In this document: one piece after another, positions 1,341 through 54,251 of the stretch
How positions within the stretch are numbered: the stretch's first letter is position 1
How the letters are laid out: each line of letters starts with the position of its first letter
Source: Nitrospirota bacterium
GTDB lineage: Bacteria; Nitrospirota; Nitrospiria; JACQBW01
DNA length: 64,000 bases
Direction of reading: 5' to 3'
NCBI GenBank assembly: GCA_016178585.1
Contig: JACOTA010000018.1
Location: forward strand, 34,442-98,441
Made by a program: the position numbers and the translations under genes
Notes under the pieces: model-generated
Databases searched by the model: none
The model's input: only the letters and a program-made list of their open reading frames with translations
What the model was told of the DNA's origin: nothing

Positions 1341-1450
1341 TGTCATTGCGAGGAGGTTTTTTTCGACGAAGCAATCTTTTTTTCCATGCGGATGTTGTGA
1401 GATTGCTTCGCTTTGCTCGCAATGACACATTTTATCGCTGTGCTTGGAAA
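1341..1450. mobile_element. MITE-like palindromic element, family A (TGTCATTGCGAG...GAAGCAATCT / AGATTGCTTC...CTCGCAATGACA), right TIR-like end retained
   Basis: Long imperfect hairpin seen directly; near-perfect reverse complement of the copy at 5515-5603. Confidence 0.8.
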
Positions 1451-1528
1451 TCCCAATTTTCTTTGAGATTGATGGGATTTATTATAAAATGAATAAGTGA
1501 AGCCGCACGGGCCCCTGAGTATAAAAGA

Positions 1529-4500
1529 GTGACGATGAGAAGGATTTTACTGTTCATTTCTATTTTTCTGGCGGGTTGCGCCAATTCCGATTTCCCTTTT
1601 TGCTGTGGACAGGCCGGCGACAAGAACGTCCCCTATTCCACGACCTATTTGTTTAGTTTCGGCACCGGATTTACCCCGATTGTCGGGGCGAATACCTTTT
1701 TAGGGATTGTTTCACAGGGGGATCTGAATAATCTCTTTAACGCCGCTAACATTTCCAGGATCCCGGGAACCGGCACGATAAACGGAAGCGTGGTTTCCTT
1801 TTCCGGCGGTACGATCAGCAATGTCGTCCTTGAAGTCACCGACTTAAATGGGAATAAAATAGGGGATCTTTTTTACAATAGTCTGGGAGGAATTCCTGAT
1901 TTTTCAAGCACGGCAGGGACAAGTGACAACGGCGGATTTACGGTCCTGAATACGCCGCCGGGAGAAGTTTATATCAGGGCGGTGAAAGGGGGCCGGGGCA
2001 ATACGGTGGCGACCTCATTTCTGGATTCCGTTTCAACCATTTCCCTCCCGGTTCGTCCCATTGTCCCGCCCTTTTTCGGAATAACGGGCGACGTGTCAGG
2101 TTACCCGGGAAATGAAAAGATCAGCGGAGCGATTCTTTCTCCCGTCGGTTTAAAAGGCCTCTCAGTAGTTTCTTCCGGAGGGAGGTATCGATTTCCCCGG
2201 TTGGGGTCTGACAGCCAATTTTTAATTCAGGGAACGGCGTCGGGCTACCTTCCGACGTACCAGGAGATAGCAACGGACCTCAATAGTTGTATTGTTCCTC
2301 CGCCGACTTTTTGTACCGGCGCGAATTGCGCTCCGCCGTCTATTAACCTCGGTCCCTGTAATAGCGGCGGCGTCGATTTAACCCAAAATCTCTATTTTCT
2401 TTCCCGGTCTGTTTTAACCGATTATTTAGGGAATACGCGATTTCTAAAACAGACGGGCTATTCCGGTCTCGATCCCTCAGCCGGAATTCTGGTGGGATCT
2501 ATGATCGATCAGGATGACACGATCAGACAGTATCCCTATCTTCTTTTGACCAACGATTCGGGCGATCTGTTAAATTTTGATCCTGTGACCCGGGTATCGA
2601 GAATTTACTATCCGGGGACCTCTCACGATGTATCGACCGGAATCAATACCCCTACCTTTTTCTTTTTTGATTCCGATGGGACTCACGTGAGCTGGTTTGA
2701 CGCCCAGTTTAATATTCAGACCTTGCCCTGTGATCCGGCGGATACCTGTCCTTCTATTTATAGGGGAAAGACGGATGGCACCTTTGTGGTCTTTAATCTT
2801 CCCCCCGGGGTGGTTCATCTTTCTGCCACGGCAAAAGAAAAACTGGAAGATGGCCTGGATTATTTTACAGGACGGGAAACCGTTGAAATTTTCCCGGGAG
2901 GCGCGACGAAAAAAAATATTAAAATGAATAAAATAACATTAGGACAAAATTATTTTTATCAATCTGTCAGCGGAAAGGTGGTTGCCTCGGACAGTAATAT
3001 ACCCGTGAGTTTTGCGCGGACTTATGCGCTTGGCCAGTCTAACTCTTACGGGGTGGCTGATATTTCAGGGAATTTTAATTTTCCTTTGAATTCGAATGTT
3101 TTCCTGGATCAAACCCATTATACGTTGAAGGTCAGCCGGGATTTTTTTATCGATACCTACCAGAATATCAAAGTGGATTCTTCTTTTAAAAACCTGGTTC
3201 TTTTTCCGGTCACCCTTATGAGTCAATATTTGAGCGCGGCAGGCCTCCCCTCTGCCTTTGATTCCACGAGAGGGATTTTAACGGGGATTATTTATGACAA
3301 TGTCAGCCACCGCGGAACGGAGGGAATCACTCTGGAAGCAACCGATCTTTCCGGTAATGTGGTGGGGGATGTCCGTTATTTTGATTCTTTGGGTCTTCCA
3401 ACCCTCTCCCGGTTTTCATCAAAAAACGGGAGGTATATGATATTTAATCTCCCGCCGGGGTTGACTCAGATTCGAGTGGTCTCCCCGGATGATTCGGGTA
3501 ATATCTTAATGGATATGTATGCCAACGGCGTTGTTCTGTCTGACCTTCAGGTCAATAATAGCCCCCCTCCATTCATTCAGGTTTCAGGGATAACGGAAGA
3601 ACTGGACAAAACCCCGGTGGGTGGTGTGACTTTGACTGTCAGGGGAGAAAAAACCCGATTTAAGTCTGCGACGGACGGAACGTTTTCTCAGCCTTTCGAG
3701 ACGTTTAGCCGTTTTGTTGTAAAAGCAAAATCGTCACAGCCCGACGGGATTGATACGTATAGTTCAATTGAAACCATCGACGCCAATCGTTCGGATTTAC
3801 GATTAAAAACTGTTCATGCGGCGACCCTTCAGGCCCAGGCGTCAAAAGGAATTCCCCCCCTTCTCTGGGATTCGACCAATGGCACGTTGGGAGGAAAAGT
3901 CATCACTTCAGGGTTCAAACCTCCCGTTCAACTCTCCGGGTATCCCGTGTCAGGGTTTAATTCGGCTCCTCTATTGAATCTCTCTCAGCAAAGGGTGTCA
4001 ACCGGTTTATTTGACGATGATAACGAAGTGGATTTGGCTGTTATCAATAGTACCGATCAGACTTTGACCCTTCTCCTGGGAAACGGAGATGGAACATTCA
4101 CTTCGACCCCCGGATCTCCTTACTGCATGCCGACTGGCATCCGCTTACTGCCGGGGCAAAGCTGTAATACTCGCGCGACCCCTGTTTCGGTTAAGAGCGC
4201 CGATTTCAATCAAGACGGGATCCTGGATTTTGCCGTGGCGAATTTCGATGATGATTCCATTACCATCTTATTTGGGACAAAAAGGGGGGATGTTGTTCCA
4301 GGAGGCGTTATCCACCTTCTTCCGGGATCTCGTCCTGTGGCGATCTCCGTCGCGGATTTCAATAAAGACCAACAAACCGATCTGGTTGTGCTCAATTCCG
4401 GAAACCGTTTGTTGACCTGGATTCAAGGGGCAGGAACCGGGGGATTTAATCCTCCCATCTATCTTTCATTGGGGGGAATTTCACCCGGGACCATGTTGAG

Positions 4501-5494
4501 CCGGGATTTCAATGGAGATGGCAACCCTGATCTGGCCATTATCGATACGGGCGCCAATTTAGTCTCCATTTTCTTGGGATTGGGAAACGGGGGCTTTACA
4601 CCGGCTCCCAACAGCCCCATCTTTATCGGAAAATCACCCATTGCCATCGCGTCGAACGATATCAATAATGACGGAAAAGATGATCTGATTATCGCAAACC
4701 AGGGATCGAATTCTTTAAATATCCTTTTAAATAAAGGGGGAGGGATTTTTACGCCCGCGAAGAATTCTCCCATAACTTTATCCGGTTCTCCTCAATTTAT
4801 CGCGTTGAATGACATTGACTTTGACGGAAGATTAGACCTTGTCGTTTCGATCATTCCTTCCGGAATTCCCTCCGGGACAATTTCACTCCTGTCGGGCCTG
4901 GGAGACGGAACGTTTACTTCCGAAACCCCTTATTCGGCAGGACCGGGTGAAAACGCGGCGAATTTTGTACTGGCGGATTACAACGATGATCTGTATACGG
5001 ATTTGGTTGTTTTTCAAACCTCCGGAAAACTGGCGTTTTTGGCGGGGATTGAAGTTCCTTTGCCGGGGGTTCGACTGGCCGCCTCGGATTTAAACGGAAA
5101 CGGTGTGGGAGGCGTTCGATATCTGAACAGCGCCGGGAACGTGGATCCTTCCCTGTCAGTCACAGGGCCGTCGGGGGAATTTTTGGTTTTTAATGTGCCT
5201 CCGGGATTTACCAATGTTCACGCGACAGGGGGGGCTTCAGGAAACCGGTTCATGACTTCTTACGCGGGAAGCGCCACTTTTGGGAATATCTCCGCCGTTC
5301 CGCCCGATTTTCGAAAAATTCAATTTTCCGGAAAGACGATCAATCCCGTGGGAAACCAGATCGGAAGATTTGTGGAAGGGGTTTCTATTTCATTTTTGGG
5401 AACAGGCATCGGGACGTTTTCTGATCCTGTCAATGCCGGTTTTAACGTTGATATTGATGCAAAAAGCTCATTTTTGATTAAACTTCAAAAATAG
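1529..5494 (+). CDS. Very large lipoprotein (1321 aa) with FG-GAP/VCBS beta-propeller repeats and three internal carboxypeptidase-regulatory-like beta-sandwich repeats
   Basis: Lipobox LFISIFLAGCANS; repeated D-x-N/D-x-D-G-x-x-D motifs (DFNQDGILDF, DFNGDGNPDLAI, DINNDGKDDLII, DIDFDGRLDLVV); three copies of the '...GN.VGD.RY.NS.G...F.NVPPG...' module; alternative ATG at 1535. Confidence 0.8.
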   Translation: MTMRRILLFISIFLAGCANSDFPFCCGQAGDKNVPYSTTYLFSFGTGFTPIVGANTFLGIVSQGDLNNLFNAANISRIPGTGTINGSVVSFSGGTISNVVLEVTDLNGNKIGDLFYNSLGGIPDFSSTAGTSDNGGFTVLNTPPGEVYIRAVKGGRGNTVATSFLDSVSTISLPVRPIVPPFFGITGDVSGYPGNEKISGAILSPVGLKGLSVVSSGGRYRFPRLGSDSQFLIQGTASGYLPTYQEIATDLNSCIVPPPTFCTGANCAPPSINLGPCNSGGVDLTQNLYFLSRSVLTDYLGNTRFLKQTGYSGLDPSAGILVGSMIDQDDTIRQYPYLLLTNDSGDLLNFDPVTRVSRIYYPGTSHDVSTGINTPTFFFFDSDGTHVSWFDAQFNIQTLPCDPADTCPSIYRGKTDGTFVVFNLPPGVVHLSATAKEKLEDGLDYFTGRETVEIFPGGATKKNIKMNKITLGQNYFYQSVSGKVVASDSNIPVSFARTYALGQSNSYGVADISGNFNFPLNSNVFLDQTHYTLKVSRDFFIDTYQNIKVDSSFKNLVLFPVTLMSQYLSAAGLPSAFDSTRGILTGIIYDNVSHRGTEGITLEATDLSGNVVGDVRYFDSLGLPTLSRFSSKNGRYMIFNLPPGLTQIRVVSPDDSGNILMDMYANGVVLSDLQVNNSPPPFIQVSGITEELDKTPVGGVTLTVRGEKTRFKSATDGTFSQPFETFSRFVVKAKSSQPDGIDTYSSIETIDANRSDLRLKTVHAATLQAQASKGIPPLLWDSTNGTLGGKVITSGFKPPVQLSGYPVSGFNSAPLLNLSQQRVSTGLFDDDNEVDLAVINSTDQTLTLLLGNGDGTFTSTPGSPYCMPTGIRLLPGQSCNTRATPVSVKSADFNQDGILDFAVANFDDDSITILFGTKRGDVVPGGVIHLLPGSRPVAISVADFNKDQQTDLVVLNSGNRLLTWIQGAGTGGFNPPIYLSLGGISPGTMLSRDFNGDGNPDLAIIDTGANLVSIFLGLGNGGFTPAPNSPIFIGKSPIAIASNDINNDGKDDLIIANQGSNSLNILLNKGGGIFTPAKNSPITLSGSPQFIALNDIDFDGRLDLVVSIIPSGIPSGTISLLSGLGDGTFTSETPYSAGPGENAANFVLADYNDDLYTDLVVFQTSGKLAFLAGIEVPLPGVRLAASDLNGNGVGGVRYLNSAGNVDPSLSVTGPSGEFLVFNVPPGFTNVHATGGASGNRFMTSYAGSATFGNISAVPPDFRKIQFSGKTINPVGNQIGRFVEGVSISFLGTGIGTFSDPVNAGFNVDIDAKSSFLIKLQK

Positions 5495-5495: not shown

Positions 5496-5750
5496 CCCAA
5501 GAACAACGATAAATGTGTCATTGCGAGCAAAGCGAAGCAATCTCACAACATCCGCATGGAAAAAAAGATTGCTTCGTCGAAAAAAACCTTCTCGCAATGA
5601 CACCATAGTTTGTCATTGCGAGCCGAAGGCGAAGCAATCTAGCCGTTTTGAACCGAGATCGCCACGCACCCTGCGGGTGCTCGCGATGACAGGCAAAACA
5701 AGGGATTGTAAATCCTATCTCTCTCTTGGAATAGCTTAAAACATGGAAAT
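5496..5750. mobile_element. Composite MITE locus: TIR CCCAAGAACAACGATA + element A (inverse of the 1341 copy) + a second element of the 'GCCACGCACCCTGCGGGTGCTCGCGATGACAGGCAAAACAAGG' variant + degenerate TIR
   Basis: Two abutting hairpin elements bounded by TIR-like ends; spurious 74/81-aa ORFs lie inside. Confidence 0.8.
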
Positions 5751-5765: not shown

Positions 5766-7283
5766 ATGCCTTCTGGTCAAAACCGCGCTGATTTTGTTTT
5801 ATTGCTGCTGACTATCTTTATTTGCGGGATGATCGTGCTTGTCCTTGAAGTGCTGGGATCACGAATCCTGAGCCCCTATTTTGGGATCTCCTTATTCATC
5901 TGGACCTCGCTCATTACGGTTACCTTGATTTCGCTCTCTCTGGGGTACTGGATTGGGGGAATTCTCTCAGACCGTTATCAAAACCGGGATCTTTTTTATC
6001 TTCTGATCCTGGTTTCGGGATTTTTTGTCATGGTGATTCCGTTGATTCAAAAGCCGGTTTCTCTCGCGATGACCTCGTTCGGCCCGCGGTTGGGATGTTT
6101 AACGACCGCTTTTACCCTTTTCACCGTTCCCCTGACCTTATTGGGAATGGTGGCCCCGTTTTCCTTAAAACTTTCTCTCAGGGAAATAGATCGGGCGGGA
6201 AAGATTGCCGGAAATTTGTATGCGCTTTCCACCCTTGGCGGGATCATGGGAACATTGTTGGTGGGTTTCTGGCTGATTCCCAATCTGGGGCTGAAAAATA
6301 TTTTATTTGTTATTTCTATTTCCCTTTCTATTTTGCCGGCAATTCACTTTATGAAAACCAAAAACTGGATGCCGGCGCTGGGCTGTCTTTCGGTCATTTT
6401 CATCAGCGGAGTCTTGATGATTTATTTTTCTCAAAGAACTCAGGCCGGGAAAATTATTTTTAAATCAGAAAGTTATTACGGCCAGTTAAAGGTTCTCAAT
6501 GATCTAAACACGCATCTGTTGATGGTCGACGGGGCGATTCAGACCGCCTATCAGATAGACCTCCATCAATCCAAAGCTCCTTACACAGCGATGATTGAAG
6601 AGGTTCTAAAAGCTTACCGGGAGCAATCGACCACCAGGTTTCTCAATGGAGCCGTCATCGGATTGGGAGGGGGGATCATTCCGGAATCGGGGTATCATTC
6701 GGGTGATTCGATTGATATTGTCGAAATCGATCCCCGAATGCCGGTCGTCGCTCAAAAATTTTTTGAATTTCATCCCGAACGGTTTAATCTCATTCTCGAA
6801 GATGCCCGTCATTTTTTAAATGGGAACAAAAAAAAATATGACTACATTGTTCTGGACGTTTTCGCGGGAGAATCGTCTCCTTTTTATTTATTGAGTCAGG
6901 AGTGTTTTGAACAGGTAAGGAACAGTTTGACGGACGACGGCATTCTGGTGATGAACACCATCGGACTTTTTACCGGCGAGGGTTCGGAGTTTACCCAATC
7001 GATTTATAAAACCCTGCAACAAAAATTTCCCCACAGAGCGCTTTTAACTGTTTCTTCCAGAGATAATTTCACGAATTATATCATGCTGGCTTCGAACCGG
7101 CCTCTGGACCCTTTGATTGCTTCCTCCGGAAAACTTTTTTCCGGAGAAGTCCATTTAAAAGATGAAGCGGGGTTAGTCCTTACCGATGATTATAATCCGG
7201 CGGATTATCTGGAACAAAAGGTTGCCCTGGAATGGCGGTTGGCGATCTGGAGGGGAACCGTCTCCGAGATTCTGCTGGATTGA
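5766..7283 (+). CDS. Fused polytopic membrane domain + spermidine/spermine synthase-like (aminopropyltransferase-fold) protein
   Basis: N-terminal ~200 aa with multiple TM helices; C-terminal methyltransferase/spermidine-synthase-like fold (VIGLGGGII..DIVEIDP...VLDVFAGE). Confidence 0.7.
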   Translation: MPSGQNRADFVLLLLTIFICGMIVLVLEVLGSRILSPYFGISLFIWTSLITVTLISLSLGYWIGGILSDRYQNRDLFYLLILVSGFFVMVIPLIQKPVSLAMTSFGPRLGCLTTAFTLFTVPLTLLGMVAPFSLKLSLREIDRAGKIAGNLYALSTLGGIMGTLLVGFWLIPNLGLKNILFVISISLSILPAIHFMKTKNWMPALGCLSVIFISGVLMIYFSQRTQAGKIIFKSESYYGQLKVLNDLNTHLLMVDGAIQTAYQIDLHQSKAPYTAMIEEVLKAYREQSTTRFLNGAVIGLGGGIIPESGYHSGDSIDIVEIDPRMPVVAQKFFEFHPERFNLILEDARHFLNGNKKKYDYIVLDVFAGESSPFYLLSQECFEQVRNSLTDDGILVMNTIGLFTGEGSEFTQSIYKTLQQKFPHRALLTVSSRDNFTNYIMLASNRPLDPLIASSGKLFSGEVHLKDEAGLVLTDDYNPADYLEQKVALEWRLAIWRGTVSEILLD

Positions 7284-7308
7284 CTCCGAAAGGCCGGGAG
7301 CGGCGCGA

Positions 7309-8019
7309 ATGATAAAATTGCCGGTTAAAGTCATATTTTTTGACGCGGCTGAAACCCTTTTTAAAACAAGGGGTTCGGTTGGAGACATCTATTTAAAGAT
7401 TGCCAGGAAATATGGGTCGCGAGCTTCAAAAGAGGCGATTGACGAGGCTTTTTTTAACGGTTTTAAAAAATCTCCTCCTGCTGTGATTTCTCAGGATATT
7501 TCCCCGTCCGAGCGAATAAAAATTGAAAAGAATTGGTGGCGCACGGTGGTCAAACAGGTCTTCACGGAAGTCGGGATGATCCCTTCTTTTGACTCTTATT
7601 TTCAGGAGGTTTACACTGTTTTTAAAGGGAGTCAGGGGTGGGAGCTTTTTCCCGAAACGATTGAAGTTTTGTCCAGTTTAAAAAAGAAAGGGTATTCGCT
7701 TGGGTTGATTACCAATTTTGACACACGGGTTTACGAAGTGACCAAAGCGTTGGGTATCGCTCATCTCCTCGATTCAATGACCCTTTCGAGTGAAACGGGC
7801 GCTCCGAAACCCCATCCGGTTATTTTTAAAAGAGCGGTAGACGCGCACCAGATCAGACCCTCTGAAGCCCTTCATGTCGGAGACAGTCTTTCGGATGACG
7901 TTGAAGGGGCATTGAAAGCAGGCCTCCAGGCCGTCCTGATTGACCGCCACCACCTCTTTAAGCCGGGAAAAGATTATATTAAAATTGAATCTCTCACCGA
8001 ATTGCTTTATGATCTGTAA
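7309..8019 (+). CDS. HAD-superfamily hydrolase (subfamily IA)
   Basis: Motif I FFDAAETL (DxD-type variant), motif III/IV K....GDSLSDDVEGA; start moved to the ATG at 7309 to clear the upstream gene. Confidence 0.75.
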   Translation: MIKLPVKVIFFDAAETLFKTRGSVGDIYLKIARKYGSRASKEAIDEAFFNGFKKSPPAVISQDISPSERIKIEKNWWRTVVKQVFTEVGMIPSFDSYFQEVYTVFKGSQGWELFPETIEVLSSLKKKGYSLGLITNFDTRVYEVTKALGIAHLLDSMTLSSETGAPKPHPVIFKRAVDAHQIRPSEALHVGDSLSDDVEGALKAGLQAVLIDRHHLFKPGKDYIKIESLTELLYDL

Positions 8020-8030: not shown

Positions 8031-8143
8031 TGTCATTGCGAGGAGGATTTTTCGACGAAGTGCTGTCATTGCGAGCAAAGCGAAGCAATCTATTTTCCAT
8101 ACGGGTGTTATGAGATTGCTTCGCTGGCGCTCGCAATGACAGG
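8031..8143. mobile_element. MITE family A locus (partial left arm + complete element)
   Basis: TGTCATTGCGAGGAGGATTTTTCGACGAAG then TGTCATTGCGAGCAAAGCGAAGCAATCT...AGATTGCTTCGCTGGCGCTCGCAATGACA. Confidence 0.8.
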
Positions 8144-8179: not shown

Positions 8180-8686
8180 ATGATTATTCCTTATCAGGGG
8201 ATTTGTCCAATAGTACCTTCGTCCGTTTTTATTGCCCCCGGAGCGGTTATCATCGGGGATGTGGAAATCGGAGAGAGTTCCAGCGTCTGGTTTAATACGG
8301 TGGTTCGTGGAGATGTTCATTTTATTCGTATCGGCTCCAACACCAATATCCAGGACCTGTCGATGCTCCACGTTACCCGGAAAACCCATCCTTTGAAAAT
8401 CGGAAACAATGTCACTGTTGGCCACAGGGTGATTCTTCATGGTTGTACCATCGGGAATTTATGCCTGATCGGCATGGGGGCGGTGGTGATGGATGGCGCG
8501 GTGGTGGAAGATGGCGCTTTTATCGGAGCCGGCTCTCTGGTTTCAGAGGGGAGTGTGATTCCGGCGGGGATGCTTGCATTCGGCGTGCCGGCAAAGCCGA
8601 AACGTCCGTTAACGCCGGAAGAAAAGGCCTTTCTGACCCTCTCCGCCAAAAATTATGTCGAAGACGCCCGGACATATATTACGTAG
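8180..8686 (+). CDS. Gamma-carbonic-anhydrase / left-handed beta-helix hexapeptide-repeat family protein (PaaY/CaiE/YrdA-like)
   Basis: Hexapeptide repeats (IGDVEIGESSSVWFNTVVRGD, IGNNVTVGHRVILHGCTIGN); conserved His ligands. Confidence 0.8.
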   Translation: MIIPYQGICPIVPSSVFIAPGAVIIGDVEIGESSSVWFNTVVRGDVHFIRIGSNTNIQDLSMLHVTRKTHPLKIGNNVTVGHRVILHGCTIGNLCLIGMGAVVMDGAVVEDGAFIGAGSLVSEGSVIPAGMLAFGVPAKPKRPLTPEEKAFLTLSAKNYVEDARTYIT

Positions 8687-8710
8687 GGGCAGGTCCCCGT
8701 GCCTGCCCTG
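8684..8710 (+). repeat. REP element (GTAGGGGCAGGTCCCCGTGCCTGCCCTG), immediately 5' of the RAYT gene
   Basis: Hairpin GGGCAGG-N8-CCTGCCC; identical copies elsewhere in the window. Confidence 0.85.
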
Positions 8711-8725
8711 AATACATGATTCGAT

Positions 8726-9319
8726 ATGACATATAATCCAGATATCCACAAACGCCATTCCTTAAGGTTAAAGGGATTTGATTATGCTCAAACGGGCGCT
8801 TATTTCATTACAATATGCACCCAAAATCGGGAATGTTTGTTTGGTAAGGTGGTAAATGATCAAAGACACCTTAATGATGCGGGAGAAATGATTCTGACTT
8901 CCTGGAACGAATTGCCACGGCATTATCCGGGGGTTGATGTTGACCAATTTGTGGTAATGCCCAATCACGTTCATGGCATTATTATTTTAACTGTAGGGGC
9001 AGGTCCCCGTGCCTGCCCTGAATTGCATATTAAAAAAAGGCAACCAGAGGAAATTTCTCCTGCATTATCCTTGTTATCTTTGTCGGATATAATACAACGG
9101 TTTAAATCATTGACAACGACTCATTATCTCCAGGGTGTCATACAAACCGGCTGGCCCCCTTTTCATAAAAAATTATGGCAACGAAATTACTATGAACATG
9201 TTATCCGAAATGAAGAGAGTTTAAATCGCATCCGGCAATATATCCATGATAATCCTTTAAATTGGAATATAGATGAAGAAAATCCGGAAGGGCAGGCACG
9301 GGGACCTGCCCCTACATAA
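8726..9319 (+). CDS. REP-associated tyrosine transposase (RAYT; IS200/Y1 HuH family, COG1943) carrying an in-frame internal REP and a REP-derived C-terminus
   Basis: N-terminal ...YFITICTQNRECLFG...; HuH motif VMPNHVHGIII; C-terminal helix LSDIIQRFKS...LWQRNYYEHVIRNEESLNRIRQYIHDNPLNW with catalytic Tyr; REP copies at 8993-9020 (translated TVGAGPRACPE) and 9290-9316 (translated EGQARGPAPT-stop). Confidence 0.8.
   Translation: MTYNPDIHKRHSLRLKGFDYAQTGAYFITICTQNRECLFGKVVNDQRHLNDAGEMILTSWNELPRHYPGVDVDQFVVMPNHVHGIIILTVGAGPRACPELHIKKRQPEEISPALSLLSLSDIIQRFKSLTTTHYLQGVIQTGWPPFHKKLWQRNYYEHVIRNEESLNRIRQYIHDNPLNWNIDEENPEGQARGPAPT
8993..9020 (+). repeat. REP element inside the RAYT ORF
   Basis: Same 27-mer as 8684. 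Confidence 0.85.
9290..9316 (-). repeat. REP element (inverse orientation) forming the 3' end of the RAYT ORF
   Basis: GGGCAGGCACGGGGACCTGCCCCTACA. Confidence 0.85.
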
Positions 9320-9343
9320 TATATTTTCTTTTTGATTCATTCG

Positions 9344-9370
9344 TAGGGGCAGGTCCCCGTGCCTGCCCTT
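9344..9370 (+). repeat. REP element downstream of RAYT
   Basis: GTAGGGGCAGGTCCCCGTGCCTGCCCT. Confidence 0.85.
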
Positions 9371-10277: not shown

Positions 10278-10302
10278 GTATCATATACAATGAAATATAT
10301 TA

Positions 10303-10330
10303 CGTAGGGGCAGGTCTCCGTGCCTGCCCT
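10303..10330 (+). repeat. REP element (one mismatch: GGTCTCCG)
   Basis: TACGTAGGGGCAGGTCTCCGTGCCTGCCCT. Confidence 0.8.
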
Positions 10331-10365
10331 GCAATAGAAAGGAATGTTGTAATGAATCAAAAAGG

Positions 10366-10887: not shown

Positions 10888-11479
10888 TCGGGAGGACCCC
10901 GATCCTGTTTTAAAGGAGGCCGCGCTCCGGGTCAAGGAAGGCAAAATAATCGTTTTTCCAACTGACACGCTTTACGGGATCGGCGTGGACATTTACAATG
11001 ATAGAGCAATCGATAGGGTTTTCTTGATCAAAAAAAGGGACAGCGGGAGCCCCATTTTAATACTGATCGAAAAGCCTTCTGATCTATTTCCTCTTGTTAA
11101 AAAGGTTCCCCCCGCGGGGCGAGAGCTTATCGACCGGTTCTGGCCGGGACCGCTGACGTTAATCTTCGACGCTTCGGAAAGTCTTTCCCCGCGACTGACC
11201 GGAAATACCGGAAAAATAGGAATCCGATGCCCCGATTCCAGGCTTGTCCAGCGTCTCCTCTCTTTTTTAAAAAGCCCGATTACCGCCACCAGCGCCAATC
11301 GGTCTCATGAACCTCCCTGTCAAAACGCTTCGGAAGCCGAAAAATATTTTGGGAACCAGGTCGATTTAATCCTGGATGGAGGAACTCTGGTTTCCGAACC
11401 CTCTACCGTGGCCGACGTGACCGGAGGGACCATCAAGATCATCAGGCAGGGCAAGATAAAAATAGAAAATCATACGTAG
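10865..11479 (+). CDS. tsaC: L-threonylcarbamoyladenylate synthase (Sua5/YrdC/TsaC family)
   Basis: GKIIVFPTDTLYGIGVD...ILILIE...GPLTLIF; the 281-aa track ORF begins inside purE, so the start is trimmed to ATG 10865. Confidence 0.8.
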   Translation: MTEIVKINREDPDPVLKEAALRVKEGKIIVFPTDTLYGIGVDIYNDRAIDRVFLIKKRDSGSPILILIEKPSDLFPLVKKVPPAGRELIDRFWPGPLTLIFDASESLSPRLTGNTGKIGIRCPDSRLVQRLLSFLKSPITATSANRSHEPPCQNASEAEKYFGNQVDLILDGGTLVSEPSTVADVTGGTIKIIRQGKIKIENHT

Positions 11480-11502
11480 GGGCAGGTCCCCGTGCCTGCC
11501 CT
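11474..11502 (+). repeat. REP element
   Basis: ACGTAGGGGCAGGTCCCCGTGCCTGCCCTTG. Confidence 0.85.
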
Positions 11503-11541
11503 TGTGTCGAAGCAGGATGTGCCTGCCCGATAAGGATAAAT

Positions 11542-13044
11542 TTGAAAATCAGGTTAACTTTAACGTCAAAATTAGTTCTCATCATGCTGTTTTTATCCTT
11601 TTTATCGCTGGGAGCGTCGTTTTATCTTTATGCCCGCACGGAACAGGCGCTGGTAAAAGAAATGGAAGATCATATCAACGAGTTGTCAAACGCCATTTCA
11701 GTGAGCGTGGAAGAACTGACCAGCCCGGAACGGACGACGGAGAAGCGGCTGCAGGATTACGTCAAGCGGCTCGAAAAAAGGGGTGTAAAGGAAATATCGA
11801 TTGTCAGCAACGAAAAAGAGGTCATTGCCAGTTCAAATCCAAAACGGGTGGGGGCAAAAATTGATCCCAAACGAAAGGATTTGTTGATTACCGCGAAACT
11901 GGGAGATCAGCTTCCTTCTCCCACTCAGAAGGCCTATAATCTTCTTGTCCCGATCGTGGTTGAAGGCGAACAGCTGGGGTACGCTCATATCAGCATGGTT
12001 TTTGACGATTATGAAAAGCTGATTGAATCCCACTATTTGGACCGTCTGGTGGCAACCCTGATCGTCTTTTCAGTCGGGATCATGGTTTCGATTTTTCTCT
12101 CGTGGCGCTACACCCGGCCTATTTATCAAATCATGGGAGCCGCGAAAAAAGTCGCCAGGGGCGATTTAAGCCAGACGATCCCTGTCAGAAAAGGGGATGA
12201 CGAAATCAACCAGTTAACGCACAGTTTTAACGAAATGATTGAAAAATTACGGCAGAACAGGGTCCTCGAAGAGAGGCTTCGTGAAACCGAACATTTGACG
12301 GCGCTGGGGCAATTCGCATCGGGGATCGCGCATGAGATTCGGAATCCGCTTAACTTTATTTCCCTGAGTATTGATCATCTCAAAGAAAAAATCGGTCATG
12401 CCTCTCCGGAAGAACAAAAAAAAATGGGCGACCTGATGACCAGCATCAAATCCGAAACCTTTCGTCTCAACCATATGGTCGAAAACTTTTTAAAATACGG
12501 CCGTCCATTAAAACTCGATATCAAACAGGTGAATCTGAACCTTTTGTTGAAAGAGGTGCTCAATTTAGCCAATCAAAAAGCGATTGAACAGGGAATCGAG
12601 ATCAGCTATGTTCCGGAGGACACCCCTTTGATTGACGGTGATGAAGAAAAAATTAAAACCTGCCTGATGAACGTCGTCGCGAATGGCCTTCAGGCAATGC
12701 CAACAGGTGGAACCCTGTCGATACGAATGACCGAACGACCTGAAGAGGTGATCCTCGAAATTACCGATACCGGTCAGGGGATTAGCCCGGAGAATTTAAA
12801 GAAAGTTTTCCAGCCCTATTTTACCACCAAACAACTTGGAATCGGCCTCGGGCTGGCCCTCACCAGACGCATTATTGAAGAACACCACGGCACAATAGAG
12901 ATCAGCTCAAGCCCTGAAAAAGGCACAAAAGTTTTAATGACGTTGCCATTGAATTACGAGATGGTTCCTGAAGCGGGAAGCGAGGAACTGGCTTGGCCAG
13001 GCCGAGCGAGGGGTTCGGGGGCATCGGAGGATTTTACGAAGTGA
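11542..13044 (+). CDS. Sensor histidine kinase (two TM helices flanking a periplasmic domain, HAMP, HisKA, HATPase_c)
   Basis: TM1 LVLIMLFLSFLSLG, TM2 LIVFSVGIMVSIFL; H-box SGIAHEIRNPLNFI; N/G-boxes NVVANGLQAM...DTGQGI...GLGL. Confidence 0.85.
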   Translation: MKIRLTLTSKLVLIMLFLSFLSLGASFYLYARTEQALVKEMEDHINELSNAISVSVEELTSPERTTEKRLQDYVKRLEKRGVKEISIVSNEKEVIASSNPKRVGAKIDPKRKDLLITAKLGDQLPSPTQKAYNLLVPIVVEGEQLGYAHISMVFDDYEKLIESHYLDRLVATLIVFSVGIMVSIFLSWRYTRPIYQIMGAAKKVARGDLSQTIPVRKGDDEINQLTHSFNEMIEKLRQNRVLEERLRETEHLTALGQFASGIAHEIRNPLNFISLSIDHLKEKIGHASPEEQKKMGDLMTSIKSETFRLNHMVENFLKYGRPLKLDIKQVNLNLLLKEVLNLANQKAIEQGIEISYVPEDTPLIDGDEEKIKTCLMNVVANGLQAMPTGGTLSIRMTERPEEVILEITDTGQGISPENLKKVFQPYFTTKQLGIGLGLALTRRIIEEHHGTIEISSSPEKGTKVLMTLPLNYEMVPEAGSEELAWPGRARGSGASEDFTK

Positions 13045-13067
13045 AACCGCACGGGTCCCTGAGTCGA

Positions 13068-14450
13068 ATGGCGAAAGGTGAGACGATTCTGGTCATCGAC
13101 GATGAAAAGCCTCAACGGGATATCCTGAAAATTATCCTGGAACAGGAAGGGTATAAGGTCGAGACGGCATCACACAGCCAGGAGGGTTTAAGAATTTATA
13201 AGAACGGAGAGGCCGATCTTGTTTTGACCGATTTAAAATTGCCCGATACGACGGAGTTAAGCGGCGTCGATGCTCTGTTCCGGATGAATCCGAATGCCTC
13301 CGTCATCATCATGACCGCGCACGGGACGATTGATTCCGCCGTAGAAGCGATGAAAAAAGGGGCGTTTGACTATCTGACTAAACCGCTCGATAAGACGGAG
13401 CTTCTCATTTCCATTCAAAGGGCGTTTGAGCGGATCCGTTTGTTAAGGGAAAACAAAAACCTCCGCCAGCAGTTGGGAGAAAAGTTTACGCTCCAGAATA
13501 TCATCGGAACGCACCCCGCCATGCAGGAGATATTCAAGATCGTTCAAAAGATCGCGGCCAGCAGCAGCACGATATTAATTTATGGGGAAAGCGGCACAGG
13601 CAAGGAATTGATCGCGAGGGCCATCCATTTTAACAGTACCCGGAAAAACGGGCCGTTCCGGGCCATTAATTGCGCGGCGATTCCCGAAAGCTTGATTGAA
13701 AATGAGCTGTTCGGCCACGAAAAGGGCTCTTTTACCGGCGCGGTCGGAAAAGAGATTGGTCTTTTTGAAGCGGCCGGCAAAGGGACCCTTTTCCTCGATG
13801 AAATCGGAGATTTGGGCCATCCGATCCAGGCCAAACTGCTTCGAGCTTTGCAGGAAAAGGAGATTAAGCGGATCGGTGGAAAAGAGGATGTCAAAATCGA
13901 TGTTCGCGTGATTGCCGCGACCAACAAGAATCTCCCCCAGGAAATTAAAAAAGGGGCCTTCCGGGAGGATCTTTTTTACCGGCTCAATATTATTTCGATC
14001 CATCTGCCCCCCTTAAGAGAGCGGGGTTCGGATATTCCAAAACTGGTCGAACATTTCCTCAAAAAGTTCAACAAGCAGACGGGAAAGAATATTAAAAGCC
14101 TCTCGAAGGAAGCGTTTCAAACGCTCCTGAATTATTCATGGCCCGGAAATGTAAGACAGCTGGAGGGTGTCATGGAAAGAACCATTCTCTTATGTGATTC
14201 GGAAGTCATCGGGCTCGAAGACCTTCCCCTTGAAATCAGAAGGGCCGGCCATCCCTTAAGTGAAATTGATTTTGATCTTCCTCCGGAAGGGTTTTCAATG
14301 GAAGCGTTTGAAAAACAGCTCCTGATTAAAGCGATGGAGAAAAGTGACTGGGTTATCGCGAAAGCCGCAAAAATGCTCGGACTTTCGTATAAGACCCTGC
14401 AGTACCGGCTGGACAAGTTCGATCTTAAGAAAAACGGTCGTGAGGAGTGA
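13068..14450 (+). CDS. Sigma-54-dependent response regulator (REC + AAA+ sigma54-interaction + Fis-type HTH; NtrC/ZraR/AtoC class)
   Basis: REC: ILVIDDE...DLVLTDLKLP; Walker A GESGTGKE, GAFTGA motif (SFTGA), ELFGHEKGSFTGA; C-terminal HTH AAKMLGLSYKTLQYRL. Confidence 0.9.
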   Translation: MAKGETILVIDDEKPQRDILKIILEQEGYKVETASHSQEGLRIYKNGEADLVLTDLKLPDTTELSGVDALFRMNPNASVIIMTAHGTIDSAVEAMKKGAFDYLTKPLDKTELLISIQRAFERIRLLRENKNLRQQLGEKFTLQNIIGTHPAMQEIFKIVQKIAASSSTILIYGESGTGKELIARAIHFNSTRKNGPFRAINCAAIPESLIENELFGHEKGSFTGAVGKEIGLFEAAGKGTLFLDEIGDLGHPIQAKLLRALQEKEIKRIGGKEDVKIDVRVIAATNKNLPQEIKKGAFREDLFYRLNIISIHLPPLRERGSDIPKLVEHFLKKFNKQTGKNIKSLSKEAFQTLLNYSWPGNVRQLEGVMERTILLCDSEVIGLEDLPLEIRRAGHPLSEIDFDLPPEGFSMEAFEKQLLIKAMEKSDWVIAKAAKMLGLSYKTLQYRLDKFDLKKNGREE

Positions 14451-14451
14451 C

Positions 14452-14578
14452 TCAAGAGAGATAGACGGCGCATTCATTTATTGATCATGTCATTGCGAGC
14501 ACCGAAGGGTGCGTGGCAATCTTACCGTAAAGTTTTGAGATTGCTTCACTTTGTTCGCAATGACAACTTTCTATCTCT
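14452..14578. mobile_element. MITE (variant with GCACCGAAGGGTGCGTGGCAATCTTACCG core), degenerate left TIR, right TIR CTATCTCTTGGG
   Basis: Near-identical to the copies at 33113 and (inverse) 19145/54107. Confidence 0.8.
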
Positions 14579-14729
14579 TGGGTGTGATTCCTTACAATTT
14601 TTTAAACATACCTTATTTAGGGTATAAACTACCTTATAACAGGTGTTCATAAGGACATGGCTAAGGGTTTTATTTTTATAACTATTTGAAAAATATAATA
14701 AAATTATTTTTACGATCTATTTTTTTTAA

Positions 14730-14745
14730 TGGTATTATTATTGCA
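14730..14745 (+). promoter_or_regulatory. Sigma-54 (-24/-12) promoter TGGTATTATTATTGCA, upstream of the 14801 gene
   Basis: GG at 14731-32 and GC at 14743-44 with exact 10-nt spacing (consensus TGGCAC-N5-TTGCA); AT-rich context; CCTTAT / CCTTAT / ATAAGG half-sites at 14611, 14632, 14649, about 80-120 bp upstream. Confidence 0.6.
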
Positions 14746-14800
14746 CTCATACTACTTCGAGTTTAACTAATAAAATAAACCTGGAAGGGGGTGAAAATAA

Positions 14801-15031
14801 ATGAAAAAAATCTACTCTTTGGTTATTGCCATGATGATGTTGGTTGCTTTCGGTACAGTGACCTTTGCCGCTGACGCCGCTGCTCCAGCTGCTCCGGCCG
14901 CATCAGAAACTCCTAAGGCTGAAGCTTCTTCAAAAACTGTAAAGAAAATGAAGAAGAAAAAAGCCCAAAAAAAAGCTAAAAAAGAAGAAAAGAAAGAAGA
15001 AATGAAAGAAGCTGCGCCAGCGGCGAAATAG
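14801..15031 (+). CDS. Small secreted protein (76 aa): signal peptide + Ala/Pro linker + highly lysine-rich C-terminal tail
   Basis: Strong RBS GGAAGGGGGTGAAAATAAATG; signal peptide MKKIYSLVIAMMMLVAFGTVTFA; tail KKMKKKKAQKKAKKEEKKEEMKE; sigma54 promoter upstream; terminator downstream. Confidence 0.55.
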   Translation: MKKIYSLVIAMMMLVAFGTVTFAADAAAPAAPAASETPKAEASSKTVKKMKKKKAQKKAKKEEKKEEMKEAAPAAK

Positions 15032-15039
15032 TTTTTTTG

Positions 15040-15133
15040 ACGGACTTTGGAATGGTCGTCCTTAGACCGTGACGGACTTTGGAATGGTCGTCCTTAGACC
15101 GTGACGGACTTTGGAATGGTCGTCCTTAGACCG
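15040..15133 (+). repeat. Three tandem direct copies of a 32-bp unit GACGGACTTTGGAATGGTCGTCCTTAGACCGT
   Basis: Read directly; copies abut with no spacers. Confidence 0.9.
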
Positions 15134-15160
15134 GAATGATCAAAATACAGCTTACAGCAA

Positions 15161-15193
15161 AAAAGCACGGTATCTTTACCGTGCTTTTTTTTT
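15161..15193 (+). terminator. Rho-independent terminator (GCACGGTA-TCTTT-ACCGTGC + T9)
   Basis: Perfect 8-bp stem followed by a T-run. Confidence 0.8.
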
Positions 15194-15243
15194 GACGTTG
15201 ATAAATAAATTTCTTTATGACAAAATCTAAAATAAATTATTTT

Positions 15244-15285
15244 ATGGTCTCGTAAAAAGTCGTCATTCCCGCGAAAGCGGGAATC
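15244..15285. repeat. Small repeat family D (ATGGTCTCGTAAAAAGTCGTCATTCCCGC-GAAA-GCGGGAAT hairpin)
   Basis: Second copy at 58321-58390. Confidence 0.7.
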
Positions 15286-15307
15286 TATAGCAAACGTAAT
15301 AAGTAAT

Positions 15308-15394: not shown

Positions 15395-15426
15395 ACCTTT
15401 AACATGATAAGCTGTCCCTTTTTTCG

Positions 15427-15488: not shown

Positions 15489-15546
15489 CAGACTTTTTAA
15501 GAGACCATCATTTAAGAATCGAATATAAATAAGAAAGGTCATTTAA

Positions 15547-42357: not shown

Positions 42358-42380
42358 GCTGTTGAAAAAGTCCTTAAAAC

Positions 42381-42472
42381 GTCATTCTGAGTCCTCGCTT
42401 GTCATTGCGAACGAAGTGAAGCAATCTCAGTAGTGGATTACTTCGTCGCAGAAAACGCTTCTCGTAATGACA
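42381..42472. mobile_element. Diverged MITE family A element
   Basis: GTCATTCTGAGTCCTCGC + TGTCATTGCGAACGAAGTGAAGCAATCTCAG...CTTCTCGTAATGACA. Confidence 0.7.
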
Positions 42473-42519: not shown

Positions 42520-43323
42520 TTACCGATTAGATTGAAGTTTTTTCTGAATAAGATCGGCTCCCTTTTTACCCGACAGAAGCATTGACCCAAACGCGGGGCC
42601 CATTCTGGGAGTTCCGAAAACAGCGGCGACAGAAAGCCCAACCAAAAAGAGGTTGGGATAAACTTCCCCTGTCTTTTCCATGATACATTCTTCTGATTTT
42701 GCGACCCACATCGGACCATTGCCGGGTACATTTTTATACAGGCCACGTTTAGCCAATAACTGAACGGCGATGGCATCGTGGCCGGTGGCATCAACCACAA
42801 TCTTGCCTTCAAGGCCTATCGGGTCGACATGAGCCGTCCCTTTTGGCATTTCATAGATCGGGGCGTAGTTGACGACGACCCCTTCCACGTTATTATTTTC
42901 TCCCCGGATGATTAAATCGCGAAGAACCGTTAAATTAAGGACTTTAATTCCGGCATCAAAGGCGCTTCCAATGAGTTTGGAGCAGGCATGAGGCGCATCG
43001 ACGATATACATCTCTTTCGTCATTTTTTTGCAGGGAACGCCGATTTTTTCAAGGATTTCCTGGGCGGGGGCGGCAATGGTTGTTTTGTTCATCAGATAGC
43101 CACCCGACCAGAACCCTCCGCCAAGATGATTGGTCTGCTCGATGATCAGGACTTTTACTCCGGAAGAAGCCAGTTCCTTTCCGCAAACCAGACCTGAAGG
43201 TCCCGCACCGATAATGATGACATCCGATTCCACCAGAGAGTCAAATTGCTGATAAAACTCTCTGGCAATAGCCCGGGTAATCTCTTTTTCATAGGTGGGT
43301 GCAATTTTGTAGGGATCAAGCAT
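42520..43323 (-). CDS. thi4: Thiazole synthase, Thi4/THI1 family
   Basis: Dinucleotide-binding fold DVIIIGAGPSGLVCGKEL; ...VVDATGHDA; length 267 aa. Confidence 0.8.
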   Translation of the reverse strand: MLDPYKIAPTYEKEITRAIAREFYQQFDSLVESDVIIIGAGPSGLVCGKELASSGVKVLIIEQTNHLGGGFWSGGYLMNKTTIAAPAQEILEKIGVPCKKMTKEMYIVDAPHACSKLIGSAFDAGIKVLNLTVLRDLIIRGENNNVEGVVVNYAPIYEMPKGTAHVDPIGLEGKIVVDATGHDAIAVQLLAKRGLYKNVPGNGPMWVAKSEECIMEKTGEVYPNLFLVGLSVAAVFGTPRMGPAFGSMLLSGKKGADLIQKKLQSNR

Positions 43324-44004
43324 GGTTTAATCCTAGCTTAGAGTCACCCGCCAAGTCAAGATTCTTGCCCACCCCCAGTTTTATCCCAAAGAACCGAGAC
43401 CAAGGCCGGGGGAGGGGGTTGGAGGAATGGGGCGTACGCCAAACAACCCTTTAAGAGACAAACGTGCCTGCCTGAAGTGCGTCTCATGAGCATTTCAGGC
43501 CATTGCAATCACGACAGAGGAGACACTAACGGGAGACGTTTTGACCCGTGACGGAAACTCCCTCCCCTGGCCTGAAAAAACGAATATTTTAAAAAACTGG
43601 GGGTGGCAAGAGCGGAGATTTATTCTTTCCCTGTTTTTTGGATTTATGGGAAACAATTTGCCACTTTCTTATCAATTTCATTAAAAAAATCAATTGATTG
43701 ACTAAAATTCTGCTCCTACTGCAATATTTTTAAATAAAATTATTAAATTTCAATGGGTTATAGGTTTGGCAAAGAAATTGCTATATACTCTCATGATAGT
43801 CTTGTGGTAATATCATTTTTATTTTTAGGGAGAGGTCATTTTGGGAGAATTATTGATTGTTTTGTCATTTTGCTTGGTTGTAACTTTACACAAATATCTT
43901 TAAGTTTTTTTAATTCACTTCCCCCCATCAATCCAGTCCAAAATAAAGACGACTGTTTTTATTTGACTTCCATTCAAACAGCATATTAAGATAAAAACCT
44001 AAAC

Positions 44005-44147
44005 ATTTCGCAAGGGGTGCCGGCGGCTGAGAGTCTTTCAAAAGAGAGGACAACCCTTTGAACCTGATCTGGATAATGCCAGCGAAGGGAAGCGGTTAAA
44101 AGAATAACGAAAACCGTGTCTCCGATGGCTGACGCGGTTTTTTTTTG
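44005..44147 (+). promoter_or_regulatory. TPP (THI-box) riboswitch with intrinsic-terminator expression platform, upstream of thiC
   Basis: GGGGTGCC...GCTGAGAG...AACCCTTTGAACCTGATCTGGATAATGCCAGCGAAGGGAA (44014-44094), then ACCGTGTC...GACGCGGT + T9 (44112-44147). Confidence 0.85.
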
Positions 44148-44242
44148 TCCTTTTGTTTATCAGGTCGCTTTAATGATTAGGTTAGGATGCGAAGATTCGG
44201 CTTTGCCGATCTGAGCGCGGGGTTCGGGGGCAGAAAAAAGAT

Positions 44243-44280
44243 AGCTTCGCTGCGGAATCGCTCGCGAGCAAGCTTTGTGG
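44243..44280. repeat. Repeat family C (AGCTTCGCTGCGGAATCGCTCGCGAGCAAGCTTTGTG) between the thiC riboswitch terminator and the thiC start
   Basis: Other copies at 61748-61785 (same orientation) and 58398-58437 (inverse). Confidence 0.75.
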
Positions 44281-44303: not shown

Positions 44304-46211
<1,908 letters not shown>

Positions 46212-46567: not shown

Positions 46568-46641
46568 TGATTAGTTCTCCTTAAATGATGTGATTTCCCT
46601 GCAAATGAATACAAACGTAAAAATAATTGTGACATGTTTCT

Positions 46642-46696
46642 TGTAGGGGCAATCCCCCGTGGTTGCCCAGGGCAGGCACAGGGGCCTGCCCCTACG
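46642..46696. repeat. Composite REP doublet (same variant as 36195)
   Basis: TTGTAGGGGCAATCCCCCGTGGTTGCCCAGGGCAGGCACAGGGGCCTGCCCCTACGA. Confidence 0.8.
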
Positions 46697-51864: not shown

Positions 51865-51938
51865 AAGAGAAAAATAGTAACAAAAACTCAGTCTGCCTGT
51901 AAAGAACGGAATTAAGCCCTAAAACATATATGGAAAGG

Positions 51939-52103
51939 TGTCATTGCGAGCCCTTCACCTGTCATTCTGAGGCGAAGCCGAAGAATCTCAGGTTTGTTCA
52001 GGACAGGCTCCGCGAAGCAATCTTGCCATCTTGAACCGAGATCGCCACGCACCCTACGGGTGCTCGCGATGACGGGCAAAACAAGGAGTTGCTGTTCACG
52101 GGT
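51939..52103. mobile_element. MITE locus (two overlapping family-A variants, including the GCCACGCACCCTACGGGTGCTCGCGATGAC type)
   Basis: TGTCATTGCGAGCCC...GTCATTCTGAGGCGAAGCCGAAGAATCT...CGAGATCGCCACGCACCCTACGGGTGCTCGCGATGACGGGCAAAACAAGG. Confidence 0.8.
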
Positions 52104-53866: not shown

Positions 53867-53960
53867 GAATACCCCTGTCTGGTATTTTTCGGTGATGGGT
53901 TTGAATCTATAGAATTTAAAGTTTAGAGTTTTAAGCCATAAAAATCAACTCACTTAAAAC

Positions 53961-54093
53961 GCCCAAGAGATAGAATGTGTCTTTGCGAGCCGAAGGCGAA
54001 GCAATCTCGTCTTTTAAACCCGAGATCGCCACGCACCCTACGGGTGCTCGCGATGACAGGAAAAAAATTATAAACTCTATCTCTGTCCTTGGC
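53961..54093. mobile_element. Complete MITE (variant CCCAAGAGATAG TIR; GCCACGCACCCTACGGGTGCTCGCGATGACAGG core)
   Basis: TIRs CCCAAGAGATAGA ... CTATCTCTGTCCTTGG. Confidence 0.8.
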
Positions 54094-54106
54094 AAACGAA
54101 TAACTT

Positions 54107-54251
54107 TACCCAAGAACAGCGATAGAAAGTTGTCATTGCGAGCGAAGCGAAGCAATCTCAAGATTTTACGATAAGATTGCCACGCACCCTTCGGTGCTCG
54201 CAATGACATGATTAATAAGTGGGTGCGAAGTCTATCGCTGTTCTTGGGCTT
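54107..54251. mobile_element. Complete MITE with TIRs (CCCAAGAACAGCGATAG ... CTATCGCTGTTCTTGGG)
   Basis: About 97% identical to 19145-19284. Confidence 0.85.

Follow-up and report, generated by a model that had tools for sequence, protein, structure and literature searches.

Classical bacterial MITEs (transposable elements of the miniature inverted-repeat type), including Correia/NEMIS, Nezha, and ERIC, are small, non-coding, multicopy, and intergenic, possess terminal inverted repeats (TIRs) and target-site duplications (TSDs), and fold into long hairpins. A family of this kind occurs in a 64,000-nt stretch (the window) of contig JACOTA010000018.1 from a metagenome-assembled genome (MAG) of a Nitrospirota bacterium (class Nitrospiria; GCA_016178585.1), where the hairpin is built from two units resembling both the CGTC-tagged repetitive extragenic palindromes (REPs) and the single-stranded DNA (ssDNA) targets of Ssn nucleases. 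The elements are probably composites, with a TIR/TSD transposon (MITE) as the shell and a head-to-head dimer of REP/Ssn-type units as the cargo. Both kinds of element are already known; the novelty lies in their combination into one composite, in the Nitrospirota host, and in a class of motifs to which the published search pattern is blind.

The CGTC-tagged REPs occur in several phyla, have “no dedicated transposase”, and form a superfamily that includes Neisseria dRS3 and Rickettsia RPE-4 and RPE-6 (Di Nocera et al. 2013, PMC3733652). In this superfamily CGTC is often changed to TGTC, the stems start with A-T, a short tail follows, and most units are head-to-head dimers, at times within longer palindromes, as in the lineage-specific examples of H. 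neapolitanus and A. variabilis. The dRS3 repeat is contained in the 28-nt Neisseria NTS (CGTCATTCCCGCGMAVGCGGGAATCYRG), which is bound solely as ssDNA; SsnA, a single-domain GIY-YIG nuclease of 94 aa, cuts it a few nucleotides upstream. The GTC that precedes the palindrome matters for cleavage and the C just after the palindrome for binding, and “Ssn-related motifs” (SRMs) flank the Ssn homologues of various phyla (Chenal et al. 2025, PMC11893778). Both the Neisseria and the Wolbachia units are bound only as ssDNA and cut upstream by a single-domain GIY-YIG Ssn of ~95 aa.

Anatomy and inventory of the repeat family

The full element is a non-autonomous transposon of ~140 bp, flanked by a TSD of 5 bp, sometimes 6 bp. 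It consists, in order, of a 17-bp TIR, a 5-nt spacer, an A-type unit, a 14–17-nt loop, an inverted B-type unit, a 23-nt spacer, and the second TIR. The hairpin, put at ~90 nt in a preliminary description of the window, measures 78 nt in the reference copy (54131–54208) and is a head-to-head pair of 30–37-nt units (arms), as are all of the hairpins in the window. Each unit reads YGTC, ATTGC, GA, a variable GC stem with a GNA loop, GAA, GCAAT, and CTC, so that a 5-bp outer stem (ATYGC/GCRAT) is followed by a GA/GAA-type internal loop, a GC-rich variable inner stem, and a CTC tail. The arm types in the window are distinguished by the inner segment (A, CGAAGC; C, GAGGATTTTTCGAC) or by a compensated outer stem (B, TGTCATCGCGAGCACCCGCAGGGTGCGTGGCGATCTC, with ATCGC/GCGAT), and a further variant has the form ATTCTGAG...GAAGAAT. 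Folded as ssDNA, the reference MITE (54109–54248) has a predicted free energy of −40.7 kcal/mol (z = −9.1).

A scan of the window for the TIR 17-mer (CCCAAGAACAGCGATAG) gave 14 matches at ≤3 mismatches compared to 0.16 expected, of which the match at 40691, inside an ATPase gene, is probably due to chance, and the hairpin base (TGTCATTGCGAGC) gave 32 matches at ≤2 mismatches compared to ~1 expected. The family occupies 14 loci and 1,935 bp (3.0% of the window), and all 14 are intergenic. These counts uphold the preliminary description in its report of a TIR and hairpin family at about 14 loci that lie at gene boundaries, and the several subvariants, both orientations, and nested, abutting, and TIR-less copies that it listed were all seen. 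The subvariants are two MITE subfamilies that differ in the loop and the 23-nt spacer, with 94–97% identity among copies within a subfamily. The claim that pairs of copies exceed 95% identity was too high for the 19145 and 54109 copies (94%); the 25985 and 39935 copies are 95% identical, and the 19145 and 33113 copies 97%. Hairpin cores lacking TIRs do exist, but not as a separate kind of element, being REP dimers that are either free-standing or left by decayed MITEs. The copies and related units are:

TIR-bounded copies (n = 8, 132–234 bp)
5496–5729, + strand: long composite MITE, one TIR pair around two SRM dimers (5516–5602 and 5611–5691); flanked on both sides by AATAG(C); 2 nt past the stop of open reading frame (ORF) 1529–5494
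14451–14582, − strand: subfamily-1 MITE with shortened TIRs (CTCAAGAGAGATAG and CCCAAGAGATAG); flanks AGTGA and TGTGA, a 4/5 match; abuts the stop of ORF 12993–14450
19145–19284, + strand: complete subfamily-1 MITE; TSD CTTGA
25985–26125, − strand: complete subfamily-2 MITE upstream of trpE; TSD CCACC from the window and a sister MAG (L348) combined
33113–33252, − strand: complete subfamily-1 MITE between the convergent trpA and ppc; TSD TATCT
39935–40075, − strand: complete subfamily-2 MITE upstream of a P-type ATPase gene; TSD (T)AAGAG; absent from a syntenic relative (L351)
53962–54093, + strand: diverged MITE with TIRs CCCAAGAGATAG and GCCAAGGACAGAGATAG; TSD AAACG
54109–54248, + strand: reference subfamily-1 MITE with perfect 17-bp TIRs; TSD CTTTA

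Hairpins with one TIR or none
1341–1448, − strand: head-to-head REP/SRM dimer of a C-type and an A-type arm; one degenerate TIR kept (1432–1448); 19 nt past the stop of ORF 3–1322
8031–8141, + strand: truncated arm (8031–8062), then an SRM dimer (8064–8141); degenerate spacer/TIR remnant on the right; 12 nt past the stop of ORF 7186–8019
15309–15394, + strand: head-to-head SRM dimer without TIRs
30370–30440, + strand: TIR-less SRM dimer between trpC and trpF; present in L348, absent from L351
42380–42472, + strand: partial ATTCTGAG-type unit (42380–42399) and an SRM dimer (42400–42472), between the convergent ATPase and thi4 genes

Other units
15261–15288, + strand: single canonical NTS-like unit (CGTCATTCCCGCGAAAGCGGGAATCTAT); fits the published SRM search motif and 27/28 positions of the Neisseria NTS consensus
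33258–33306, + strand: truncated copy abutting the 33113 MITE, a short TIR-like CTCAAGAGAGATAA and one arm
51917–52100, + strand: old subfamily-2 copy with degenerate TIRs and a different unit (TGTCATTCTGAGGCGAAGCCGAAGAATCTC) nested in its A arm; ends 3 nt from the pepP stop

In the single unit at 15261 an uninterrupted stem of 8 bp is closed by a 4-nt loop, unlike the interrupted stem of the main arms. In the same region (14803–15488), a 32-nt repeat (TGACGGACTTTGGAATGGTCGTCCTTAGACCG), with three perfect tandem copies (15038–15133) and two inverted copies (15425–15488), lies downstream of a small ORF (14803–15031) that is rich in Lys and encodes a signal peptide, and brackets a terminator-like hairpin, the NTS-like unit, and the 15309 SRM dimer.

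Insertion and placement relative to genes

The TIR-bounded copies behave as MITEs, possessing TIRs, 5–6-bp TSDs, and near-identical copies. Exact flanking duplications of 5 bp were found for four copies (CTTGA, 19145; TATCT, 33113; CTTTA, 54109; AAACG, 53962) and of 6 bp for two (AATAG(C), 5496; (T)AAGAG, 39935), compared to a chance of 1.4% per element that flanks at random positions are identical (±1 nt slack allowed). As target duplications imply a staggered cut, the TIRs and TSDs would be the footprint of a DDE-type transposase supplied in trans.

Two related genomes were available for comparison, the sister MAG L348 (GCA_016195515.1) and the syntenic relative L351 (GCA_041486115.1), which has the same gene order at ~72% nucleotide identity. 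L351 lacks elements at 3/3 orthologous intergenic sites (trpC and trpF abut there, and the gap between the FHA and ATPase genes is 82 nt), and neither an arm nor a TIR was found in 13.8 kb of this genome. The preliminary description had regarded the copies as mobile insertions that would have to be given up if they proved to be structured RNAs conserved at syntenic positions, and the empty sites in L351 bear out mobility.

The same comparison tells against the reading in which the repeats are cis-regulatory or structured RNAs (terminators, attenuators, or mRNA-stabilizing hairpins) kept at gene ends for their function, which is highly improbable. Such a role would suit the position of nearly all of the copies, 2–45 nt downstream of stop codons, and the strong fold of the full element (z = −9.1), and REPs elsewhere can affect 3′ ends. 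Because the orthologous sites are empty in L351, the repeats fail as conserved syntenic RNAs. Both orientations occur, no element in the window has an Rfam match at the gathering threshold (and none at E ≤ 1 in 53900–54300), so that a known RNA family was rejected, and Ssn binds ssDNA, not RNA (PMC11893778). The 20 kb scanned (14000–33999) contain 27 terminator-like sites, not one of which coincides with an element, and the stems lack a following T-tract at every locus. A strong promoter-like site at 19286–19315 is native flanking sequence, beginning in the right TSD copy and outside of the element. The consensus scans thus give no support to the intrinsic terminator and promoter roles that had been proposed, and these were set aside. 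Any effect on 3′ ends of RNA would be secondary, and a secondary effect on the RNA stability of neighboring genes may occur.

The placement itself is typical of REPs. Copies had been described as sitting precisely in promoter or leader regions; most instead begin 2–45 nt past a stop codon (one lies 104 nt past), and in two copies the stop codon was incorporated in the duplicated target. The survival of exclusively intergenic copies is consistent with purifying selection.

The subfamily-2 MITE upstream of trpE (25985) differs in its surroundings between the window and L348. The window retains 91 bp of the left flank, ending in CCACC, and is missing the right flank, while L348 retains 76 bp of right flank, starting with CCACC, and is missing the left. 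From these complementary flanks a 5-bp TSD (CCACC) was reconstructed, and the pattern points to two independent element-adjacent deletions, one per genome. The 76 bp upstream of trpE that L348 keeps and the window strain lacks could alter trpE expression. To the right of this MITE the two genomes are 99.92% identical over 16,140 bp. Identity to its left (22608–26124) was observed to be 96.4%, a step which indicates that the element marks a recombination breakpoint or an assembly junction.

Short-read contigs (3 to 5 sequencing runs per locus) all end inside MITEs at every locus examined, because a high-copy repeat breaks short-read assembly. These Logan contigs, every one ending within a MITE, consequently give no word on empty sites, and the host organism turns up in one series of sequencing runs only. 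Its TrpB is 100% identical to proteins labelled “MAG: Nitrospirae bacterium”, with Nitrospiria as the next relatives; a cyanobacterial origin was rejected on this placement and on the lack of HIP1 sites. That the elements break assemblies and are associated with deletions next to trpE makes them relevant to MAG quality and to strain comparison in this group.

Spread of the unit and its link to GIY-YIG nucleases

An exact-pattern scan (TGTCATTGCGAG-N4-20-GAAGCAATCT; 22 specified bases) was applied to species-representative genome contigs and to IMG/VR viral contigs. The arm was present in at least 120 stretches of genome contigs, which represent at least 15 phylum-level lineages, and the viral contigs likewise gave at least 120 stretches. 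By record title, the lineages among the matches listed were Chloroflexota, Bacteroidota, Patescibacteria, Omnitrophota, Planctomycetota, Desulfobacterota, Bacillota, Nitrospirota, Gemmatimonadota, Ignavibacteriota, Elusimicrobiota, Spirochaetota, Atribacterota, Campylobacterota, Pseudomonadota, and others.

The 442 distinct arms among the listed matches share a palindrome followed by C-T-C, with random flanks beyond, and have mostly T (n = 389) and less often C (n = 35) before GTC; both forms are present in the window. The inner segments (411 distinct among the same matches) have a mean terminal stem of 2.62 bp compared to 0.57 bp in 200 shuffles (maximum, 0.70), and inner stems of ≥4 bp come in 71 different versions with loops that are mostly GAA, GCA, GTA, or GGA. 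With stems this varied and self-complementarity above that of the shuffles, it is the structure that is maintained and the sequence that changes. Both the GTC head and the C that follows the palindrome are conserved in the arms, and these are the positions critical for cleavage and binding in Chenal et al. 2025. By its sequence, the unit fits the CGTC/TGTC-tagged REP superfamily and the NTS/Ssn-related motifs, so that the hairpin, introduced as an internal feature of this MITE family, is instead a dimer of a pan-bacterial motif.

It is hardly credible, given this distribution, that arms from different phyla resemble each other by convergence or as a chance product of low complexity and that the elements are a lineage-private MITE. 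One observation accords with that idea: among the matches listed, MITE TIRs adjoin arms in this lineage only (the window and L348). Twenty-two specified bases recur exactly in at least 240 stretches from many phyla and viruses, however, with head, tail, internal loop, and GNA loop all conserved, and the arms are tightly associated with one protein family (below); pattern spread and protein association have effectively refuted convergence. What appeared to be a lineage-private MITE can be re-filed as a pan-bacterial REP/SRM dimer enclosed in the shell of a TIR/TSD transposon. Other phyla also have SRM dimers within different lineage-specific inverted repeats of 14–15 bp (L007, 1783–1899; L025, 3037–3113), and in Chloroflexus the arms are arrayed in tandem, recurring every ~50 nt.

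The protein family is an ORF of ~95 aa with a GIY-YIG domain, the only family to recur beside arms in the 120 arm-selected genome loci listed, where it is arm-flanked in five of the 120 (L036, L066, L106, L111, and L122). Its Pfam GIY-YIG assignment was confirmed, and the nearest solved structures are UPF0213 proteins. In the 80 metagenome loci that encode the closest relatives of these arm-associated seeds (58–73% identity), an arm lies within 250 nt of the GIY-YIG gene at 77 and arms lie on both sides at 60, the commonest layout being arm(+), ORF, arm(−) (25 of 80), and arms number 5.7 per kb in the vicinity of the gene compared to 0.30 per kb further off. This layout reproduces the published NTS-ssnA-NTS architecture. 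On the viral side, none of the arm loci (L125–L244; at least 120 IMG/VR stretches) lies beside a GIY-YIG gene of the associated subfamily, among the matches listed. The arms on viral contigs may be relevant to horizontal spread or to an action of Ssn against phage ssDNA.

By analogy, the units in the window are most likely sites at which ssDNA is bound and cleaved by an Ssn-type nuclease that would be encoded elsewhere in the genome, and this would extend the range of Ssn motifs to Nitrospirota. The predicted Ssn cut is ~3 nt upstream of YGTC, a position obtained by our own arithmetic from the NTS substrate lengths of Chenal et al. 2025, and would fall between TIR and arm, not at the end of the element. 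With the cut away from the element ends, shell and cargo are likely handled by different enzymes. A more far-reaching proposal is that the ATTGCGAG...GAAGCAAT hairpin represents a distinct pan-bacterial and virus-borne class of Ssn targets, captured here as the cargo of a TIR/TSD transposon, with a cut-and-paste transposase spreading target sites or with the two enzymes cooperating. It is offered tentatively, as an unlikely extension; if true, it would provide a concrete route by which the “orphan” CGTC-type REPs, without a known mobilizer since 2013, could be disseminated.

Candidate enzymes and comparison with known systems

The window encodes two Y1 (IS200-like) genes, which the preliminary description did not mention. 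An ORF at 8726–9319 is RAYT-like (68 bits against NCBIfam REP_Tyr_transpos, under the cutoff of 80) and is flanked by GTAG-headed REPs, one copy of which lies in frame inside the ORF. These belong to a second, unrelated repeat family (GTAGGGGCAGGTCCCCGTGCCTGCCC; 8671–9370), with further copies at 10292–10331, 11464–11503, 29367–29406, 36196–36249, and 46631–46695. The other gene, of the TIRYT type (21510–22472, minus strand, within 20674–22524), has a DnaA_C-like helix-turn-helix, and an ORF-less group II intron (20674–21541) was seen to abut one of its ends directly. Its orthologue in L351 (4623–5610; 85% identical), located between trpA and ppc, possesses perfect 19-bp TIRs (GGGGTCAGTTCTTGACTTT) and no TSD. 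As mobilizers of the MITEs, the RAYT-like gene was rejected for its tie to the GTAG-headed family, and the TIRYT for having its own TIR, found once in the window, and for the missing TSD in L351. The YGTC-headed arms flank neither Y1 gene, and the family beside the RAYT-like gene is a different one (GTAGGGGCAGG...).

These genes bear on a reading that dispenses with a DDE transposase, in which the whole 140-bp palindrome, TIRs included, is a pure REP/BIME-type element spread by a hairpin-recognizing ssDNA enzyme such as an Ssn GIY-YIG nuclease or a Y1 enzyme (RAYT or TIRYT). The core units are indeed REP/SRM units, REP dimers within longer lineage-specific palindromes are known from H. neapolitanus and A. 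variabilis and were found in L007 and L025, two Y1 genes are at hand, and the TIRs of TIRYT and MITE have a CAAGAAC core in common. However, Y1/HUH single-strand transposition leaves no TSD, as for the L351 TIRYT, whereas the MITEs have TSDs of 5–6 bp; the 19-bp TIRYT TIR is otherwise unlike that of the MITE, CAAGAAC being all that the two share; and the Ssn cut is predicted between TIR and arm. This reading is accordingly graded as improbable, though less so than that of functional RNAs.

Several observations weigh against the preferred composite of transposon shell and REP/Ssn-type cargo. No transposase with matching TIRs was found in the window, as the preliminary description had stated, and a search for a full-length insertion sequence with the TIR 16-mer in IMG/VR gave 15 single matches that are far from arms and chance-like. 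The flanks of the 14451 copy agree at only 4/5 positions, and the CCACC reconstruction could be affected by assembly errors at repeats in both MAGs. No GIY-YIG gene is present in the window, L348, or L351, so that the link to Ssn rests on other organisms, and the 96% arm association in metagenomes holds only for the GIY-YIG subfamily near the arm-associated seeds. The published SRM motif, HGTCWYN(0-2)YYVSBRHN(0-5)WNVSBRGN(0-2)RNCYNB, misses the A, B, and C arms and among the units matches only 15261–15288. Finally, the minimal A-type arm alone is not significantly stable in the nearest-neighbor model (z = 0.44); as this model, in our view, gives no credit to sheared G-A pairs or GNA triloops, the result is only weak negative evidence. 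A literature text search for the literal repeat sequences returned primer noise only.

With their interrupted stem, tandem GA pairs, and GNA loop, the arms form a motif class that is distinct in structure and that published motif searches would undercount, and the composite elements provide a testable route for the spread of CGTC-type REPs. The window is unusually repeat-rich, and two more small repeat families, one ending in GGGGTTCGGGGGCA and one containing GCTTCGCTGCGG..CGCTCGCGAGCAAGCTTTGTG, have sites at 12976–13023, 44185–44279, 58404–58437, 60797–60844, and 61741–61785. A thiamine pyrophosphate (TPP) riboswitch (44003–44107; 75.8 bits) lies upstream of ORF 44313–46211, with thi4 nearby (42520–43323).

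Among described systems, the NTS and SRMs (PMC11893778) share with the window units the YGTC head, the AT-starting palindrome, the conserved C after the palindrome, and the occurrence in inverted pairs and clusters; in other organisms, related units flank ~95-aa single-domain GIY-YIG genes on both sides, and the 15261–15288 unit is nearly the Neisseria NTS consensus. The main arms of the window differ in their 5-bp outer stem, GA/GAA internal loop, variable inner stem, and GNA loop, and the dimers sit between TIRs with TSDs, an arrangement not described in PMC11893778. The CGTC-tagged REPs (PMC3733652) are similar in having TGTC-for-CGTC heads, stems that start with AT (ATT in the window), a short tail, a predominance of head-to-head dimers (often heterodimers and at times within longer palindromes), and an extragenic position, mostly downstream of genes, without a flanking tyrosine transposase. 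Their stems, in contrast, are continuous (8–9 bp, with 4–5-nt loops), whereas those of the window are interrupted and have inner stems of varying length; Nitrospirota is outside of the five phyla listed in PMC3733652, and that study has no TSD analysis of outer palindromes.

The REPIN-RAYT and TIRYT systems (Bertels and Rainey 2011; Quentin et al. 2018, PMC6006769) likewise consist of REP doublets that form hairpins and of a nuclease or transposase gene that occurs in a single copy between repeats of its own, and the window that contains the MITEs also has a GTAG-REP/RAYT pair and a TIRYT. Unlike in those systems, the arms have YGTC heads rather than GTAG, and the protein associated with them elsewhere is GIY-YIG rather than HUH-Y1.

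Classical bacterial MITEs agree with the window elements in small size, lack of coding sequence, TIRs and TSDs, multiple copies, intergenic location, and the capacity to fold into long hairpins. The difference is in the interior, which in the window MITEs is a dimer of an independently widespread REP unit and not the remnant of a deleted transposase.

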